Source: Candidatus Gottesmanbacteria bacterium
GTDB lineage: Bacteria; Patescibacteriota; Microgenomatia; 2-02-FULL-39-11
Assembly (NCBI GenBank): GCA_016195685.1
Contig: JACPZE010000003.1
Coordinates: 899 to 64,898 of the forward strand
Direction of reading: 5' to 3'
DNA: 64,000 nt
Positions 4,012-52,309 of the stretch are shown one piece after another (positions within the stretch are counted from its first letter, which is position 1; the number at the start of each line of letters is the position of its first letter). The notes below the pieces were generated by a model that had not been told where the DNA came from, did no database searches, and worked only from the letters and a program-made list of their open reading frames with translations. A program made the position numbers and the translations under genes.

Positions 4012-4374
4012 TTATTTTTTTTCTCTTTTCCTCTCACAATCTACGCAGTAAAGAGCTGTTGGTTTCACTGTCAATCTTTCGATACTGATCATCTTACCGC
4101 AGGACAAACATTTTCCGTAGATTCCTTTTTTAATCCGCAATAAAGCTTCTTCGATCTCAGACATATGCAAACGCAACTCCTTTTCCAGTGCCTGCATTCG
4201 TTCATGTGATATCTCTTCCTTGGCGTCGGTATCAGAAGCAGCGTTATCATTTAGCCTATCAGGGTCAGAAAATGGATCTTGGGATTTAAGCGACGTAATT
4301 GTAGTATCGACTTTTCTTTTTTCTTTAAGTAATGATAAATTTATTTTTTTCAGAAAATCAAGTGTAATTTTCAT
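4012..4374 (-). CDS. TraR/DksA-family C4-type zinc-finger protein
   Basis: C-terminal CLSCGKMISIERLTVKPTALYCVDCE four-Cys finger preceded by a coiled-coil region. Confidence 0.65.
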   Translation of the reverse strand: MKITLDFLKKINLSLLKEKRKVDTTITSLKSQDPFSDPDRLNDNAASDTDAKEEISHERMQALEKELRLHMSEIEEALLRIKKGIYGKCLSCGKMISIERLTVKPTALYCVDCERKREKK

Positions 4375-5128
4375 TATTTTTTTGGCTCCTCCTTTTAAAT
4401 TTTATAATCAGCGGAACTACAATTGCCACAAGCAATATTAAAACACCTACCTGGCGAAAACTCAGACCATATAAGTATAGGTTATAAACTTTTAGGAATT
4501 CAAGTAGGAATATAATCAACGCAAGACCTATTCCGAAAATGGATGCGACCAACCCTTCGGGCAAAATATTTCTTTTAACCCGTTTGTAAATAAGATAAAG
4601 TATTAATGTAAGTATAGATAACAAAAATGCTTCATAAAGTTCTACAGGATGATGTTTTCCCGGTAACCCTATAATTTTTATTCCCAGAAAAAAGTTCGTT
4701 TCTCGACCAAATCCTGCACCACCTAGTTGTTCACCAAGTTTGGCAAGAATCAGGGCAAAACTGGAAGCAAGCGAAAAAAGATCCAGTAGCTTCCAAAAGT
4801 TTCTTTTTATTCTCCTGGCATACCAAAAAAGGAAAATAAATCCACCAAATAATCCGCCCACAAGGGATAAACCAGGAGTTTCCCTGACTACGATATATTT
4901 GAGAAAATTCAGTCCGAATTCATTAAAATGAAATAGGATAAACCCTAGTCTGCTAGCGATTAATGATGCTAAACTTGTATAAAGAAAAGCATCTAAGTAT
5001 TCCTCCTCGGCAAGTTCCTCTTTGGCATTTTTCCATACAATAAAAGTGGAAAAAAGAAATGCTAAAGAGAGAAAAAATCCGAATGCGTAAACATTAAATG
5101 ACCCGATGGTAAAAAGTACAGGAGACAT
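4358..5128 (-). CDS. lgt: prolipoprotein diacylglyceryl transferase
   Basis: polytopic membrane protein with Lgt signature region GRETNFF...HPVELYEAFL and conserved N-terminal FTIGSF..YAFG. Confidence 0.7.
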   Translation of the reverse strand: MSPVLFTIGSFNVYAFGFFLSLAFLFSTFIVWKNAKEELAEEEYLDAFLYTSLASLIASRLGFILFHFNEFGLNFLKYIVVRETPGLSLVGGLFGGFIFLFWYARRIKRNFWKLLDLFSLASSFALILAKLGEQLGGAGFGRETNFFLGIKIIGLPGKHHPVELYEAFLLSILTLILYLIYKRVKRNILPEGLVASIFGIGLALIIFLLEFLKVYNLYLYGLSFRQVGVLILLVAIVVPLIIKFKRRSQKNNENYT

Positions 5129-5129
5129 A

Positions 5130-6413
5130 TTAGTTAATCGTAGTATTTACTTTTCTCCTTTGCAAGTAATGGTAAATTCCACTTATAAGTACTAATACCC
5201 CGATGACCGAAAGTGCCCTACCAACACCAGCAACATCAGCAAGAATACCGGAAAAAATACCAGGAAGTATTGAAACTCCACCTGTGAGTGATGTTAATAC
5301 ACCATAGATACGACCCTGCATTTTGGTATCTGAATCAGATTGTAAAATAGCATTTGCCGGAACGCTTACGAAAGAATTAAAAATCCCCAGAAAAAATAAA
5401 AGACCAATTGCCATCATAAGATTATTTAGTACAAACCGTCTGTGCAAAAAATATATAAACAGACCAATACTGGGTTTCCCCGCTTTGGTCAAAAGAGACA
5501 ACAAAAGTAAACAAAAAGCAACACCCCACATCCCCAAAAGTATGATCGTGCCTTTAAGATATCTATTCCCAAATCCTCCCACCCAAAATGCTCCCAAAAC
5601 TAAACCGATCGCTGCTGGACCCATGATCAAATATGAAGCATCTTTAAGATCTATATTTAGTATTCTGTCAGAAAACCCAGGACCCAATACCGCTAGTGTC
5701 GCTATAAGTGCTTGAGAAAAAGTAAGAAGAAGTAAACTTTGCCTTACACGAATATTTTCCCGGATAAAAAGTAAGCCTTCTTTTGTCGTATCCGTGAAAA
5801 GACTAAATGTTATATTTATTTTGGATTTTCCTTTTGTAGCTTTTATACTGGGTAATAAATAAATAAACGCTGTAGCCAAAATCATAAGACTTCCCATAAA
5901 TAGATAGACAAAAGTTTCACCAAAAAGGCGAATCATTGGTCCGGAGAGAATAAATCCTAAAACAGTGGATAAATAAAAACTGATCGTAAAAAGAGAGTTG
6001 GCGGTAAGAATTTGTGAAGGCTCAACCAAATTCGGAATAGATGGTGCCTCGGCTGGAATAAAAAATTGGGTACTTATGGAGATAAGTATTGCCAGAATAA
6101 AAATAGCAAGAATGTTATTTGCAAATAAAAAAAATCCGATAAAAATAAAAACTCTAGAAATATTACACAATAAAAGGACAATTCTTTTATCATAAAAATC
6201 GACAATCCCTCCGGCTACTACCCCAAAAATAACCGACGGAATAGCAAAACATAAAAGCATCAAAGATACTACCGTACTAGACCTGGTAGTTTGATATACC
6301 ATGATTGCCAGAACAAAAATAAGCATGTTTAAGGAAATTTGAGAGGTAATTTGACCAAGCCAAATATTGCGGAAATTTGTATTTTTTATAACTGAAATGT
6401 AGGAGTTCAGCAT
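5130..6413 (-). CDS. MFS-type transporter
   Basis: 12 predicted TM helices in a 6+6 arrangement; no family-specific motif recognised. Confidence 0.65.
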   Translation of the reverse strand: MLNSYISVIKNTNFRNIWLGQITSQISLNMLIFVLAIMVYQTTRSSTVVSLMLLCFAIPSVIFGVVAGGIVDFYDKRIVLLLCNISRVFIFIGFFLFANNILAIFILAILISISTQFFIPAEAPSIPNLVEPSQILTANSLFTISFYLSTVLGFILSGPMIRLFGETFVYLFMGSLMILATAFIYLLPSIKATKGKSKINITFSLFTDTTKEGLLFIRENIRVRQSLLLLTFSQALIATLAVLGPGFSDRILNIDLKDASYLIMGPAAIGLVLGAFWVGGFGNRYLKGTIILLGMWGVAFCLLLLSLLTKAGKPSIGLFIYFLHRRFVLNNLMMAIGLLFFLGIFNSFVSVPANAILQSDSDTKMQGRIYGVLTSLTGGVSILPGIFSGILADVAGVGRALSVIGVLVLISGIYHYLQRRKVNTTIN

Positions 6414-6425
6414 TTAAAAATGAAC

Positions 6426-7970
6426 TTATAAGTTTCCCAATATGTACTCCAGAAGAGTTCTTACCCCAAAACCTACCCCTCCGATAGAAGAAAGAGGAGT
6501 ATCGCGTTCGGCGAAAGCAGGACCAGCTATATCCAGATGTACCCAAGGCGTATCCCCAACGAACTCAGCCAAAAATAAAGCGGCGGTAATGGCTCCACCG
6601 TATCTGCCTGTCTGGATGTTTTTGACGTCTGCAATGTGGCTCTTGATAAGGGATTTATAGTCGGAAAAAAGCGGCATGTTCCATACCCATTCGCCTACAT
6701 TTTCTCCTGATTTACTTATAGAATCTATAAGTTTGGTATTATTCCCCCACATACCGGCAATATCATCACCTAAAGCAACCATGCACGCACCCGTCAGTGT
6801 AGCTAAATCTATGATTTCATCAGGTTTCTCTTTCAAATTGGCATAAGATATGGCATCGGCTAAAGTAAGTCTTCCTTCAGCATCGGTATTGAGTACTTCA
6901 ATCGTCTTTCCGTTCATGGCTTTTAGTATGTCTCCGGGTTTTAATGCTTTTCCAGAAGGCATATTTTCACAAGCGGCTATAAGACCCACTACCTCAATAA
7001 TAGGATTTAAAAGTGTGATGGCATGAAATACTGCTAAAATTGCAGCTGCTCCGGCCATATCCAGTTTCATCGTTTCCATGTGCTCGGCTGACTTAAGAGA
7101 AAGTCCGCCGGTATCAAAAGTGATCCCTTTACCTATTAACACTATTTTTTTCGACGATCCGGCAGGTTTATACGATAAATGGATAAATTTTGGCGGTTTA
7201 TCACTGCCCGATGCTACCCCCAGAAATGAATTCATTCCTAATTTGGCTATTTCATCCTTGTCCATAATTTTTACTTTCACGGTGTTTTTACTTTCCTTTG
7301 CAATATTTAAAGCAACATCAGCTAAATAACTAGGTGAGGTAATTTCAGGAGGTTCATTTATAAGATCACGGGCGAAAACAGTTGAATTGGAAAATATTTC
7401 ACCCTTCCGCATTCCTTCTTCACCCAAAGTTAATTTGGGTGCGGAAAGAGATAATAGGACTTCTTCGATAGGGCGATTATTTTTCTGTTCCTCCTCACCT
7501 TTGTATTTGATAAATTTATATGAGGAAAGATTAACTGCCTCTACAACGGATTGAATGACTCTTTCCACCGGATATTTTTTCATCCAATAATCATCTACTA
7601 TTAAGGCTATTTTGGCCGGTTTAGTATCTATAACGCGTTTGATGGAAGTTGCAATCAATTTGTATAGTTTGTAGATATCAAATTCCTCTTTTTTACCTAT
7701 CCCAAACAAAAAAAACTTATACGCTGCTAAATCACCTTTGGGATAAACAAACAGTGTTTGACTCTCTTTCCCTTTGAATTCTTCCTTTTCGGCAAGAGTT
7801 TTTAATTCATCTAAAAAAGCCTTGGGGAGCGACGCGACATTTGAAAATTCTCCTTCCCAACAGTATTTTATAAGCACATCGACTTCTAGTTTTTCTGGAT
7901 TTGTAGGTTTGAGAAGAAATTTCATTTGTTTGACTAATACGAGTGTACAAAATATAATGATTGGAGTCAA
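6426..7970 (-). CDS. pepA: leucyl aminopeptidase, peptidase M17
   Basis: M17 signature NTDAEGRLTLADA and metal-binding region around VGKGITFDTGG. Confidence 0.85.
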   Translation of the reverse strand: MTPIIIFCTLVLVKQMKFLLKPTNPEKLEVDVLIKYCWEGEFSNVASLPKAFLDELKTLAEKEEFKGKESQTLFVYPKGDLAAYKFFLFGIGKKEEFDIYKLYKLIATSIKRVIDTKPAKIALIVDDYWMKKYPVERVIQSVVEAVNLSSYKFIKYKGEEEQKNNRPIEEVLLSLSAPKLTLGEEGMRKGEIFSNSTVFARDLINEPPEITSPSYLADVALNIAKESKNTVKVKIMDKDEIAKLGMNSFLGVASGSDKPPKFIHLSYKPAGSSKKIVLIGKGITFDTGGLSLKSAEHMETMKLDMAGAAAILAVFHAITLLNPIIEVVGLIAACENMPSGKALKPGDILKAMNGKTIEVLNTDAEGRLTLADAISYANLKEKPDEIIDLATLTGACMVALGDDIAGMWGNNTKLIDSISKSGENVGEWVWNMPLFSDYKSLIKSHIADVKNIQTGRYGGAITAALFLAEFVGDTPWVHLDIAGPAFAERDTPLSSIGGVGFGVRTLLEYILGNL

Positions 7971-48251: not shown

Positions 48252-49457
48252 TTAATATGCTTGGGCGAAATACCAGCGGTGGGTAGATGCTTTGCCGCAA
48301 TAAATACATTCCCCTTTATCTTCTTTAGCATCCAAAGGTAATACCCTACTGGTTGCTTTAGTTTCTTCTTTTATCTTGGCTTCACAGACCGGATCTTCAC
48401 ACCAGAAAGTATAGATCAATCCCTTTTTTGTCTTCATTATTTCTTTAAACTCGACGTAGTTTTCTATTTTGTGTGTATTTTCTTCTCGGAATTTTTTCAT
48501 CCGCCCAAAAATATTTATCTGTATTTCATCCAGTAATTTTTTCATCTCGCTTACCAACTTTGTCCTACTTACCTTTATTTTCTCTCCCGTATCTCGTCTT
48601 ACTACTGTCATTTCATTTGCATCTATTTCCCTTTCTCCCAGTTCAATTCTCAAAGGTACTCCTTTTAGTTCCCATTCGTTGAATTTCCATCCTACGGTTT
48701 TTTCTTCTCTATCATCTACCTGTACTCGGAAACCTTGTTTATTTAAAAGTATTTTTAATTCTTCGCTGTATTTTTTAACTTTTGAAGTGATTTTGATAGG
48801 TACAATCACTACTTGGATCGAAGCAATTTTAGGCGGAAGGATAAGTCCCTGGTCATCTCCGTGTGAAAGTATTAAGGCACCTATTACACGGGTTGTTTCT
48901 GCCCAACTAGTTTGCCATACATATTGCTGCTTACCTTCCTTATCCAAATATTTTATATCAAATACTTTGGCAAAATTGTCTCCAAGATGATGTGACGTAC
49001 CCATCTGGATAACTTTTCCATCCGGCATAAGTGATTCGAGGGAATAAGTAATAGCTGCCCCGGGAAATCTTTCACTTTGGGATTTTTTTCCAGTAATCAC
49101 TGGAATGGCTAATATTTCCTCATCAAATTTTGCATATATTTTTAGTATTTTGCGGGCAAAATTATCTGCGTCTTCAAAAGTTGCATGAGCAGTATGCCCT
49201 TCCTGCCAAAGAAATTCAGTCGTACGTCTGTGCGGAATAAACAGAGGAAAATAAGCGTTCTTTACTCCCAATTCTTTAAATCGATCATCCAGATAATCTT
49301 GAATTTTTTCCCAAATCTCGTAACCGTAAGGCCTAATGATCATACAGCCCTTTACCGGTGAGTAATCCGCCATTTCGGCTTTGAGAATAACATCGGTATA
49401 CCACCTGTCAAAATCCTGAGACTTTTTTGCGATCTCTTTTTTATCGAACTGTTTCAT
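48252..49457 (-). CDS. proS: prolyl-tRNA synthetase, archaeal/eukaryotic type
   Basis: class II core with archaeal-type N-terminus (DFDRWYTDVILKAEMADYSPVKGCMIIRPYGY) and C-terminal Cys-rich Zn module ending ...Y. Confidence 0.85.
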   Translation of the reverse strand: MKQFDKKEIAKKSQDFDRWYTDVILKAEMADYSPVKGCMIIRPYGYEIWEKIQDYLDDRFKELGVKNAYFPLFIPHRRTTEFLWQEGHTAHATFEDADNFARKILKIYAKFDEEILAIPVITGKKSQSERFPGAAITYSLESLMPDGKVIQMGTSHHLGDNFAKVFDIKYLDKEGKQQYVWQTSWAETTRVIGALILSHGDDQGLILPPKIASIQVVIVPIKITSKVKKYSEELKILLNKQGFRVQVDDREEKTVGWKFNEWELKGVPLRIELGEREIDANEMTVVRRDTGEKIKVSRTKLVSEMKKLLDEIQINIFGRMKKFREENTHKIENYVEFKEIMKTKKGLIYTFWCEDPVCEAKIKEETKATSRVLPLDAKEDKGECIYCGKASTHRWYFAQAY

Positions 49458-49458
49458 A

Positions 49459-49785
49459 TCAATAAATTCTTTTTCCCAATTTGGCCTGCGGAAGAGGAGT
49501 TAGAAGTTCATATCCTCCTTCATCACGCTGTGCTCCCAAAGTCAAAACTTCAGAGATAAAAGGACCTATCTGTTTCGGCGCAAAATTAACTACACAAATT
49601 ACTTGCCGTCCGATAAGTTCTTCTTTTTTATAATTTACTATCTGTGCTGAAGATTTTTTTATCCCCAACGGTCCAAAATCAATCGTCAGTTTATAAGCGG
49701 GTTTGATAGCTTGTGGGAAATCTTCTACTGCAATCACCTTTCCCACCCGCATATCCACTTTTGCAAAATCATCATACGTTATCAT
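49459..49785 (-). CDS. CsaA/Trbp111-like tRNA-binding domain protein
   Basis: OB-fold tRNA-binding pattern DFAKVDMRVGKVIAVEDFP...KKSSAQIVN. Confidence 0.75.
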   Translation of the reverse strand: MITYDDFAKVDMRVGKVIAVEDFPQAIKPAYKLTIDFGPLGIKKSSAQIVNYKKEELIGRQVICVVNFAPKQIGPFISEVLTLGAQRDEGGYELLTPLPQAKLGKRIY

Positions 49786-49810
49786 ATTTATATAATTATA
49801 TATGCTGTTT

Positions 49811-50833
49811 TTAATTTAATAAAGCAAATAAATCTTTAGGATCGGTAACTACTGGTGTCATATTGAGTTCTTCACCTATGTGATATTTTTGGGCAAGCTC
49901 ATATGTTAACCTTAGCACTGAATAATCTTCCAGTGCTATGCCGACGGAATCAAATAGAGTTATTTCCCGCTCATTTTCGCGGCCGCATTTAAAACCATTT
50001 ATCAATTCATAAAGCTCTCCATACACAAGTTTTTTTGCTTGAGATTTTTCCAGAACCTGGATTTCTCCTTCATCCTTTGATTGGTCAAAATATTCCACTA
50101 CTATACGACTCATAGGTAAAATACTTGCTTCCAACTCCGTTTTGCCTTTACTATCTCCACCGATAGCGTTTATATGAACCCCAGCCTTCACCCAATCCTT
50201 TTTTAGTGCTTCCATATGACCATAACATACCGTACAAACCGTAATAATATCAGCACTTTGTGTTGCTTCTTTGGCACTCTTACATCTTATTAGTCTTAAA
50301 TCTTTTCCGCTTAAATTCTTCTCGAATTTATCCATTGCTTTTGCATCTATATCAAAATATCGTACTTCCTTAATTCCTCTTATAATTTGCATTGCTTTCA
50401 CTTGAAATTCACTTTGGGCACCAGTTCCGATGATTGCTAAAGTCTTGGCATTTTTGCGAGCCATGAAATCCGCTGCTAACGCTGAGGTGGCCGCGGTTCG
50501 CAAAGCTGTAAGTATGGTCATCTCACTAAACATAAGTGGATAACCGGTGGCAATACTGACAAGTTGACCGGTAGCCACAATTGTTTGTTTACCAATCGAC
50601 GGGTTTTTAGGATGTAAATTCACGTATTTGAAAGTGTAATAAAGCTCATTATCACAAATAGGCATAAGCTCCAATACGCCAGCCGAGACACGCATACCCG
50701 GACGAGGTATTTTCGCAAACGTATGCCAACGACCAAAATCTCTCCGAAGAGATTTCATAACATCCCCCATGAAATTATCAAATCCATGAAGATTAAGCAG
50801 TTTAATTAGTGATTCCTCAGTTATTATTTTCAT
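49811..50833 (-). CDS. ornithine cyclodeaminase / mu-crystallin family enzyme (likely proline-forming)
   Basis: Rossmann motif AIIGTGAQSEFQVKAM and OCD-family length and pattern; sits under a T-box-type leader with proS. Confidence 0.7.
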   Translation of the reverse strand: MKIITEESLIKLLNLHGFDNFMGDVMKSLRRDFGRWHTFAKIPRPGMRVSAGVLELMPICDNELYYTFKYVNLHPKNPSIGKQTIVATGQLVSIATGYPLMFSEMTILTALRTAATSALAADFMARKNAKTLAIIGTGAQSEFQVKAMQIIRGIKEVRYFDIDAKAMDKFEKNLSGKDLRLIRCKSAKEATQSADIITVCTVCYGHMEALKKDWVKAGVHINAIGGDSKGKTELEASILPMSRIVVEYFDQSKDEGEIQVLEKSQAKKLVYGELYELINGFKCGRENEREITLFDSVGIALEDYSVLRLTYELAQKYHIGEELNMTPVVTDPKDLFALLN

Positions 50834-50869
50834 AATAGATTCGTCGTTTCACTCCTCAAACTCTGTTCA

Positions 50870-51110
50870 CTTCCACAAAAAAGTCCTCTCCTCCGCCAAC
50901 TGGCGGATTCAAGGACGTTAAGTTTAACGTGGTACCACCTTGTTTTTGGTCTTTAAAAAAGCACAACATTTAGTTGTGCGTCTTAAAAACTCTTTTAATG
51001 CTCCTTCCCGCTTGGCGGGATGACACACTTTGTTTTATTTTTACGGTTAAACTTCCGGAATGCTTATCGCATTCAGCTCATCTAGCGGGAAACTAGACTA
51101 TAGCGCTTTT
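50870..51110 (-). promoter_or_regulatory. T-box-type riboswitch leader (candidate tRNA-Pro-responsive) controlling ocd-csaA-proS
   Basis: minus strand: -35 TTGACA; Stem-III-like hairpin GCACAAC-UAAAU-GUUGUGC; T-box core AAGGUGGUACCACG; terminator hairpin (GUCC..CCGCC-AGUU-GGCGG..GGAC) followed by UUUUUU, 45 nt before the start codon. Confidence 0.6.
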
Positions 51111-51151
51111 ATTTATTCTATTATACTACAAACTGTCAACTCACTCACTTA

Positions 51152-52309
51152 TTATTTTATAAATATTCTTACAATATCGTTGAAAGTTACAAAAAGCATA
51201 AGAGCCAAAAGTAAAGCCATCCCTATCTGATGTATATGACGCTCCCAGTTGGCCTTTACCTTCTTACCGGTAATGCCTTCGATTACTACAAAAAGTAATC
51301 TTCCACCGTCAAGAGCCGGAAACGGCAATACGTTAAAAATAGCCAGGCTTATCGTCATCAAAGCCATAAGTTGAACTATGTTAAAAAATGCTTCAAAACC
51401 TCCGATTTTTAGAAAACTACCTATAACATTAAATATCCCGACTGGCCCGGATAAATTTTTTGCAATCGGATCAACCGTCCTGGTAGCTACAGAAGTACTG
51501 ATCAAAGTACCCAAAACTTTCATAGTATAAACACCCATGTCATAGGTCAGCGTAAATCCGGATATCAATTTTTGAGAAAAAGCCGGATAAGATATTTCCA
51601 ATACATCGGCTATTTTTATACCCATCGGTCCCTCGCCTTTCGGCGGATTCGCACGAGGTATAGCAAAAACATTTCGGGGATTTATAGGAATTTGGTGATA
51701 TAACTTTATATTTATGCTTTTTCCTGACTTTTGCTTCGTAACGTTCATCATTCCTTCGGATCCATTTATATCTTGACCATCTACCGAAACCAATATATCC
51801 CCATCTTTGATACCTGCTAAATCAGATGGGGATCCTTTTGCAACATCAGTCACAATCACTCTTTTTGCTTGAAGGGCATTGTGAAAATTATATTTGGCAA
51901 AATCCGGCACAAATGTTTTAAATGATGAAAGAGACAACATCATGTACAATAGGACCACCCCCAATACCAAATTCATCGTCACTCCGGCCAGAAGTATCGC
52001 AGCTCTAGCCCAAGGAGTTTTGTGGACAAACGAGGCCGGGTTACTACGCTCTTCATCGCCCTCTTCTCCCAAAAGCCTAACAAATCCTCCGAAAAGTACA
52101 GGATAAACAGCCCAGATCATCTTGTCCTTGCCTTTTTTGGAGAAAAGCGGTTTTGTGAAAGGAAGTCCAAGAGCAAATTCTTCTACTTTTACTTTAAAAA
52201 ATTTGGCAGCAAGGAAATGCCCAAACTCATGGACCAAAACTAATACTGATAAAACAACAAAAAAAATTAAAAGTACAAACAAAAATACTAAAATAGTTGG
52301 AAGAAACAT
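51152..52309 (-). CDS. rseP: RIP site-2 metalloprotease RseP (M50) with PDZ domain
   Basis: HEFGHFLAAK HExxH in TM1; PDZ; C-terminal LDGG motif region. Confidence 0.85.
   Translation of the reverse strand: MFLPTILVFLFVLLIFFVVLSVLVLVHEFGHFLAAKFFKVKVEEFALGLPFTKPLFSKKGKDKMIWAVYPVLFGGFVRLLGEEGDEERSNPASFVHKTPWARAAILLAGVTMNLVLGVVLLYMMLSLSSFKTFVPDFAKYNFHNALQAKRVIVTDVAKGSPSDLAGIKDGDILVSVDGQDINGSEGMMNVTKQKSGKSINIKLYHQIPINPRNVFAIPRANPPKGEGPMGIKIADVLEISYPAFSQKLISGFTLTYDMGVYTMKVLGTLISTSVATRTVDPIAKNLSGPVGIFNVIGSFLKIGGFEAFFNIVQLMALMTISLAIFNVLPFPALDGGRLLFVVIEGITGKKVKANWERHIHQIGMALLLALMLFVTFNDIVRIFIK

Follow-up and report, generated by a model that had tools for sequence, protein, structure and literature searches.

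A predicted proline-specific T-box leader with a minimal decoding module upstream of an ocd-csaA-proS operon

The gap between an M50/RseP-like gene and an ornithine cyclodeaminase gene very probably harbours a proline-specific T-box, which decodes its tRNA with a minimal module and regulates the ocd-csaA-proS operon through transcription attenuation. The gap comprises 318 nt (50834..51151, minus strand) of a 64,000-nucleotide stretch of DNA that is called the window here in its full length. A sequence-only reading had described a T-box-type leader in a gap of just this size, and both its extent and its T-box identity hold, the latter by a match to the Rfam family RF00230 and by comparison with the leaders of relatives. 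The comparison supports a genuine T-box riboswitch of putatively minimal architecture, without the distal Stem I platform and without an S-turn in Stem II. Judged from its sequence, this leader is a member of a subclass found in Microgenomates-type Patescibacteria that serves proline genes, ileS and a his operon.

The locus and the downstream genes

The leader has the M50/RseP-like gene (51152..52309) as upstream neighbour, and the operon to be regulated occupies 48252..50833 of the minus strand, as established by Pfam, NCBIfam and synteny. Its first gene, ocd (49811..50833, minus strand), codes for an ornithine cyclodeaminase (NF005762, 409.7 bits at a cutoff of 350). It is followed by a csaA-like tRNA-binding gene (49459..49785, minus strand; NF007494, above cutoff) and by proS (48252..49457, minus strand) for a family-I prolyl-tRNA synthetase (TIGR00408, 430.7 bits, just under the cutoff of 437). 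Both family collections thus confirm the OCD-family, CsaA-like and ProRS assignments that had been made from the translations. The synteny of the operon is common to the window and to the loci L005, L009, L012, L013 and L021, and the closest relatives show the same gene order as the window, namely RRF-RseP-leader-OCD-CsaA/ProRS-DHH-HIT.

Promoter-like hexamers can be read directly at 51120..51139 (minus strand), with TTGACA at 51139..51134 and a perfect TATAAT at 51125..51120. The TTGACA reported before is therefore present, but its spacing to TATAAT is only 8 nt and non-canonical; a sigma-70 scan accepted no pair at 51120..51139 and gave no canonically spaced promoter for the leader. The arrangement of TTGACA and TATAAT-like hexamers with 8-nt spacing is common to the window, L001 and L002, and the spacers of other relatives measure 16-17 nt.

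The proS open reading frame of the window has 401 codons' worth of protein (401 aa) after an in-frame loss of ~225 nt (about 74 codons) with its junction near 49230. The missing part is equivalent to residues 75-148 of Thermus thermophilus ProRS and covers the motif 2 region, which is retained in the ProRS of close relatives. In an independent contig (L178 from SRR12113414, from the same organism and 99.93% identical over 1,410 nt) proS is intact, and its product reads ...FIPHSFLQKEKEHVAGF...RPTSET...VVRWEKRT across the region missing from the window. An exact look-up of the 401-aa ProRS sequence gave no match. That the 401-aa protein is a lineage-specific truncated paralogue was considered and rejected, since the relatives and the independent assembly hold the missing 74-77 residues. 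By this sequence comparison the deletion probably arose through misassembly or belongs to a minor allele, and it leaves the reading of the operon intact.

Identity as a T-box

RF00230 aligns in full length (model positions 1-219) to 50908..51121 with 42.9 bits. The E-value is 2.7e-8 for the gap and 4e-6 for the whole window, and with reporting by E-value this is the sole sub-threshold match in 64 kb. The covariance-model search that had been proposed as a check is thus significant, though its score stays under the Rfam gathering score of 93; at the gathering threshold Rfam reports in the whole window tRNA only and not the leader. What lowers the score is the distal Stem I, for whose 70 model positions the leader has just 9 nt. 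With 30-56 bits the window and 13 relatives lie below 93, and therefore the subclass goes unreported in routine annotation at the curated threshold. The T-box core AAGGUGGUACCACG, already claimed for this gap, stands at 50941..50928 and agrees with the consensus AGGGUGGNACCGCG at 12 of 14 positions. The leader as a whole folds with z=-6.1 against shuffles.

Given an alignment over the entire RF00230 model and a canonical 3' half, the leader might be taken for an ordinary class I transcriptional T-box, a plain member of RF00230 whose long Stem I was overlooked. This is highly improbable: the 9 nt that stand for the 70-nt distal Stem I cannot accommodate the platform, the Stem I of 6 bp and 7-nt loop that is found instead covaries in 50 relatives, and the window and the 13 relatives share the low range of scores given above. 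The reading as a T-box with truncated Stem I is followed in the next sections.

Relatives and covariation

A search with the OCD protein retrieved 54 genomic loci. The closest belong to Gottesmanbacteria, Woesebacteria, Levyibacteriota and Dojkabacteria MAGs together with several otherwise labelled MAGs, and the same leader type is located upstream of OCD in 15 of the 54. Scanning metagenomes with the antiterminator pattern added 120 further loci; because these were retrieved through the antiterminator sequence, their helices A1 and A2 (see below) carry no independent weight. For the 5' decoding module a covariance model (R1) was built from 22 leaders (alignment A2). It matches the window once (51026..51109, 89.5 bits) and elsewhere 54 leaders, 50 of them distinct. 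In alignment A3, which was fitted to R1 and therefore flatters the pairing figures, 94.4% of the cells are paired versus 21-40% (about 30%) with slid partners. Changes on both sides of a pair, i.e. compensatory ones, occur in 16 of 17 pairs, and the observed values were reached by 0 of 500 shuffles. The low pairing of the slid controls and the many different stem sequences speak for real helices in the decoding module. Across three further sequencing runs the leader is 99.9% identical.

Among the loci L002, L004, L008, L009, L010 and L013-L015 there are MAGs titled 'uncultured Gammaproteobacteria' or 'Pseudomonadales', and these loci match the CPR (Microgenomates-type) gene order and sequence; on these grounds the taxonomic labels look wrong. 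Two loci, L009 (3843-4000) and L013 (1239-1416), have kept Stem I, Stem II, the IIA/B pseudoknot, the linker hairpin and the Stem III hairpin with its U-run. There the OCD start codon comes directly next, without T-box core, antiterminator and second terminator.

The decoding module

All elements of this part are encoded on the minus strand. The truncated Stem I region (51075..51107) is covered by the R1 match of 89.5 bits. It starts with a basal helix P0, in which AGC (51107..51105) pairs with GCU (51077..51075) and two of three pairs show compensatory changes. At the position of the K-turn the 5' side is GCUAUA, hence GCU-AUA and not NNN-GA, and the 3' side is GA (51079..51078); many relatives carry the canonical GUU-GA / GA here. 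Stem I proper has 6 bp (GUCUAG/CUAGAU, 51098..51093 with 51085..51080), all six with compensatory changes, and is closed by an apical specifier loop of 7 nt, UUUCCCG (51092..51086). This loop presents CCC (51089..51087) as putative specifier, with the conserved purine G (51086) directly 3' of it, and among the relatives the same loop is borne by at least 11 different stem sequences.

Specifier loops of the relatives were read by parsing anchored on the covariance model, which was possible for 43 distinct leaders. In 40 of them the loop ends, on its 3' side, with a CCN codon and a purine, and all 40 lie upstream of proline-related genes (25 CCC-G, 5 CCC-A, 7 CCU-R, 1 CCG-G and 2 CCA-R). The proline specificity proposed in the sequence-only reading is borne out, but through CCC at 51089..51087 in the apical loop of Stem I and not through the Pro codon that had been noted, with an ambiguous assignment, in a presumptive Stem-I specifier region at UCAUCCCGCCAA. 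This candidate (51023..51012) was rejected, as it is paired inside the linker hairpin with its CCCGC-CAA-GCGGG helix, and the sequence of this hairpin varies among relatives.

Stem II (51058..51074) is a helix of 5-6 bp without internal S-turn in the window. Its core pairs 51073..51069 with 51063..51059, where all five pairs covary, and it carries the purine-rich pentaloop GAUAA (51068..51064). The consensus of this loop among the relatives is GANRA (GAUGA, GAAGA, GAUAA), and some of them (L007, L013, L021) have a longer Stem II. Next comes the Stem IIA/B pseudoknot (51032..51057) with the F-box-like CCGUAAAA, which is conserved in relatives. Helix IIA (CGG 51057..51055 with CCG 51046..51044) is 100% paired with compensatory changes. 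Helix IIB joins the loop GUUU (51052..51049) to AAAC (51035..51032); it is situated outside the R1 model and covaries as well, since matched loop/tail helices average 3.35 bp versus 2.85 +/- 0.09 bp for mismatched ones, a value as high being reached in 0 of 2000 permutations.

Linker hairpin and Stem III

Between the pseudoknot and Stem III a linker hairpin (50999..51028, minus strand) is part of the MFE fold. It is composed of an outer helix GUGUGUC...GGAGCAU and the inner CCCGC-CAA-GCGGG (51019..51007), and it is conserved in relatives with compensatory changes, e.g., GCGUGUC/GGAGCGC in L010, L064 and L097.

Together with a purine flank, ..AAAAGAG or 'RAG' motif, Stem III spans 50948..50998 (minus strand). 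The stem itself (50990..50949) has an outer helix of ~10 bp and folds at -17.3 kcal/mol overall, with -10.7 kcal/mol for the tip. At this tip GCACAAC-UAAAU-GUUGUGC (50979..50961) is followed by U6 (50960..50955), and a scan classified the combination as terminator-like. The perfect Stem-III-like hairpin noted earlier does exist at 50979..50961, but it is merely the tip of a longer Stem III. A hairpin plus U-run occurs in the Stem III region of 18 of the 50 leaders, the window included, versus 0.4 expected from shuffles. Leaders with such a GC-rich hairpin and U5-U8 at the tip of Stem III are, besides the window, those of L002, L005-L008, L010, L021, L063, L064, L072, L090, L093, L097, L121 and L137. 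The embedded hairpin with its U6 could terminate transcripts ahead of the sensing step, and we speculate that it represents a pause or early termination checkpoint. The conserved upstream GUGUGU was considered as an anti-terminator against the ACACAC arm of the Stem III tip and was dropped, because the complementarity is absent in L006, L008, L009 and L010.

Antiterminator, terminator and mode of control

The discriminator and antiterminator region (50910..50942, minus strand) was aligned to RF00230. Helix A1 has 5 bp (CAAGG 50942..50938 with CCUUG 50914..50910), the 7-nt T-box bulge reads UGGUACC (50937..50931) and helix A2 with 6 bp follows at 50930..50915, which gives the fold (((((.......((((((....))))))))))) at -7.2 kcal/mol. 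The competing intrinsic terminator (50877..50916, minus strand) reaches -22.0 kcal/mol. It consists of a hairpin (50916..50883) with the sequence GUCCUU-GAA-UCCGCC-AGUU-GGCGGA-GGA-GAGGAC and of U6 (50882..50877). Its 5' strand shares 50916..50910 with the 3' strands of A2 and A1. The alternative pairing of antiterminator and terminator, whose lack would have spoken against a T-box, therefore exists, and the overlapping terminator hairpin with U6 before the start codon was correctly recognised; it ends 43 nt upstream of the ocd ATG (50833). In T-boxes such an asymmetry between a weak antiterminator and a strong terminator is usual, as the antiterminator needs the tRNA to win. All full-length relatives have an equivalent GC hairpin with U6-U8, and the hairpin sequence covaries with A2.

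As short Stem I's are elsewhere a feature of translational T-boxes (PMC7583486, PMC11297988), a translational mode as in the Actinobacterial ileS leaders, with the 3' hairpin sequestering the ribosome-binding region, has to be weighed. In several relatives (e.g., L006, L008, L093) the U-run abuts the AUG, so that the hairpin could hinder initiation there. In the window, however, the hairpin is 43 nt away from the AUG and covers no Shine-Dalgarno sequence, the sole GAGGAG being outside this hairpin at a distance of 18 nt to the AUG. Transcriptional control is favoured over translational control because of this distance without a nearby Shine-Dalgarno sequence and because the strong GC stem, with -22 kcal/mol, and U6-U8 recur in every full-length relative, which is the signature of an intrinsic terminator. 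A purely translational T-box is thus unlikely, though in those relatives whose U-run abuts the AUG an added translational effect may occur.

Agreement of specifier and gene, and the proline regulon

If the leader is a T-box for proline, the codon in its loop should agree with the genes behind it. Pro-type leaders precede genes for OCD, nickel-pincer-type OCD, short ProB-like kinases, ProC (above its family cutoff), two kinds of ProRS, CsaA-like proteins and GNAT. The nickel-pincer-nucleotide-type OCD (TIGR00300, 349 bits) is unrelated to the mu-crystallin type. It is this enzyme or a GNAT acetyltransferase that follows the Pro-type leaders of L065, L097, L120 and L079. The loop of L165 is CGCA (possibly Arg) and stands ahead of an ORF without family match. 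Sister leaders in front of IleRS genes show AUC and then A in their loop; TIGR00392 scores above cutoff for the IleRS of L104, L110 and L135. In L002 a second leader (4111-4300), downstream of csaA, has CAC in the Stem I loop, the variant core AGGAUGGGACCGCG and a UGGG bulge; behind it (4487-7643) a tRNA-His gene is followed by hisG-hisD-hisC. The UGGG bulge fits C73 of bacterial tRNA-His. A T-box directly ahead of its own cognate tRNA gene, as in L002, is unusual.

For the proline leaders the UGGU bulge had been assigned to a tRNA end with discriminator A, and this is corroborated by the CPR tRNA-Pro(CGG) genes in L029 and L037, which carry A73 matching the U of UGGU. These genes (L029, 2025-2096; L037, 3014-3084) are located ~230 nt ahead of OCD and immediately precede the Pro leader-peptide element described below. 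ARAGORN found no tRNA-Pro(GGG) in 85 loci, and the tRNA gene content of the window is tRNA-Leu only.

Many CPR loci have the csaA-like gene in linkage with ocd and proS, and in seven metagenome loci (L063, L084, L100, L126, L157, L163, L166) it is the first gene behind the Pro T-box. This linkage suggests a role of the CsaA-like protein tied to proline or tRNA-Pro, e.g., as a trans-acting tRNA-binding partner of ProRS. In the IleRS ORFs of L104 (5452-7902), L110 (1461-3869) and L135 (2658-5087) approximately residues 490-700 match histidine-phosphatase / phosphoglycerate-mutase-like families, so a histidine-phosphatase-like region appears to be inserted or fused within these IleRS.

Loci of Saccharibacteria, Nomurabacteria and Paceibacterota type have no T-box ahead of OCD; its place is taken by an ORF of ~18 codons. 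This ORF ends with P-x-P-x-P-(K/I/R)-stop, its Pro codons vary synonymously, and a GC hairpin with U-run follows. This element is found in L017-L023, L025-L031, L033, L035, L036 and L040, about 60-200 nt upstream of OCD. From its sequence the combination of ORF and hairpin looks like a proline leader-peptide attenuator, and to our knowledge no family of this kind has been described. Since other CPR lineages place a Pro-codon leader peptide and a terminator before ocd, there is an independent sign that proline charging controls this gene. The proline-supply regulon proposed before gains from both sources, the agreement of codon and gene and the genes downstream of the relatives' leaders.

A last point concerns the possibility of a decayed, non-functional relic or a chance resemblance. 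It could be argued from the score under threshold, from L009 and L013 without T-box core and from the proS deletion in this assembly. Against it stand the window-wide E=4e-6, compensatory changes in every helix, a strictly conserved specifier and an agreement of codon and gene for three amino acids; the proS deletion, moreover, is absent from the independent assembly. A relic or chance match can hardly be upheld, and the functional proline-specific T-box is retained as the preferred reading. Against this reading weigh the score below 93, the AUA on the 5' side of the K-turn position, a Stem II without the S-turn that the solved T-boxes of short Stem I require, the missing canonically spaced promoter, the embedded Stem III hairpin with U6, and L009 and L013 without T-box core.

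Proposed mechanism

By analogy with known T-boxes, the anticodon of uncharged tRNA-Pro would pair with CCC in the Stem I loop. The Stem II loop and the IIA/B pseudoknot would brace the codon-anticodon duplex and so stand in for the missing elbow contact, and the free 3' ACCA of the tRNA would pair with UGGU and stabilise the weak antiterminator. With the antiterminator formed, RNA polymerase would read into ocd and proS, and the ocd product would make proline from ornithine. Prolyl-tRNA, on the other hand, would fail to stabilise the antiterminator, and the terminator would form. The proposed steps of tRNA binding and antitermination follow established T-box biochemistry (PMC7583486, PMC11297988).

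A more far-reaching model is offered tentatively, and we regard it as possible rather than probable. In it the leader would stand for a T-box subclass that has so far not been described, is widespread in Microgenomates-type CPR and makes its decision during transcription with no contact to the tRNA elbow. In place of the S-turn, a mini Stem II with a GNRA-like pentaloop would brace the codon-anticodon duplex. The hairpin and U-run inside Stem III (50979..50955) would serve as a programmed pause or as a first checkpoint, so that the slow-binding minimal module gains time to capture the tRNA ahead of the arrival of polymerase at the real terminator.

Comparison with known T-boxes and attenuators

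Leader-peptide attenuators of the his, trp and leu type have the same regulatory purpose as this leader. In contrast with them the window leader contains no Pro leader ORF and, by analogy with other T-boxes, would sense the tRNA directly.

The Bacillus proBA and proI leaders carry a long Stem I. As far as PMC13198045 describes them (citing Brill et al. 2011), they are, like this leader, proline-specific and act by transcription attenuation, and the logic would be the same, with uncharged tRNA-Pro inducing proline supply. In the same account they are canonical T-boxes with a CCU specifier and serve the glutamate pathway, whereas this leader has its putative CCC in an apical loop and is followed by ornithine cyclodeaminase as first gene and then by proS.

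With RF00230, which represents class I of TBDB (PMC7778990), the leader shares the T-box sequence, the antiterminator/terminator, Stem III, IIA/B and the K-turn position; it differs by the absence of the distal Stem I. The long Stem I with interdigitated T-loop platform that characterises class I is lacking.

The closest likeness in decoding is to the ileS T-boxes of Actinobacteria (M. tuberculosis, M. smegmatis, N. farcinica; Sherwood et al. 2015, as cited in PMC7583486 and PMC11297988), whose Stem I is termed short or 'ultrashort'. Most translational Actinobacterial ileS T-boxes have such a short Stem I, and a specifier in the apical loop is known from short Stem I's only (PMC7583486, PMC11297988). 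Both groups have in common the apical-loop specifier, the short Stem I, the absence of an elbow-binding platform, Stem II with the IIA/B pseudoknot, the discriminator with its UGGN bulge and the RAG flank. The differences are several. The Actinobacterial leaders sequester the Shine-Dalgarno sequence, have a Stem II of ~30-40 nt with an essential S-turn and belong to an isoleucine gene of Actinobacteria; the present one ends in a predicted intrinsic terminator, has a 5-6-bp Stem II with GANRA pentaloop and appears to serve proline in a CPR-like host. In addition it possesses an extra linker hairpin and a terminator-like Stem III tip, unlike the Actinobacterial leaders. Of the features of class II (Actinobacterial, translational) the apical-loop specifier is therefore present, and sequestration of the Shine-Dalgarno sequence or start codon and an elongated Stem II with S-turn, a 5-purine string, are absent.

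As read from its sequence, this leader joins the class II style of decoding to the expression platform of class I, and measured against the reviews this combination is new. A limited literature search found no report joining T-box riboswitches with CPR or Patescibacteria, which as an absence is not a proof. Terminator-type T-boxes have been held to need a long, elbow-binding Stem I for kinetic reasons (PMC7583486). The leader and its ~50 relatives counter this rule, and they point to the use of an apical-loop specifier together with an intrinsic terminator for proline, isoleucine and histidine in ultra-small bacteria. An entire subclass of T-boxes is missed by the Rfam threshold. The relatives also provide regulatory evidence for a CPR proline regulon, despite the usual picture of scant biosynthetic capacity, with two unrelated OCD types, short ProB-like kinases, ProC, ProRS and the CsaA-like protein as putative members. 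With a length of ~230 nt the leader offers a natural system for studying the minimum RNA needed in co-transcriptional tRNA sensing, where known terminator-type T-boxes have been thought to depend on the elbow.
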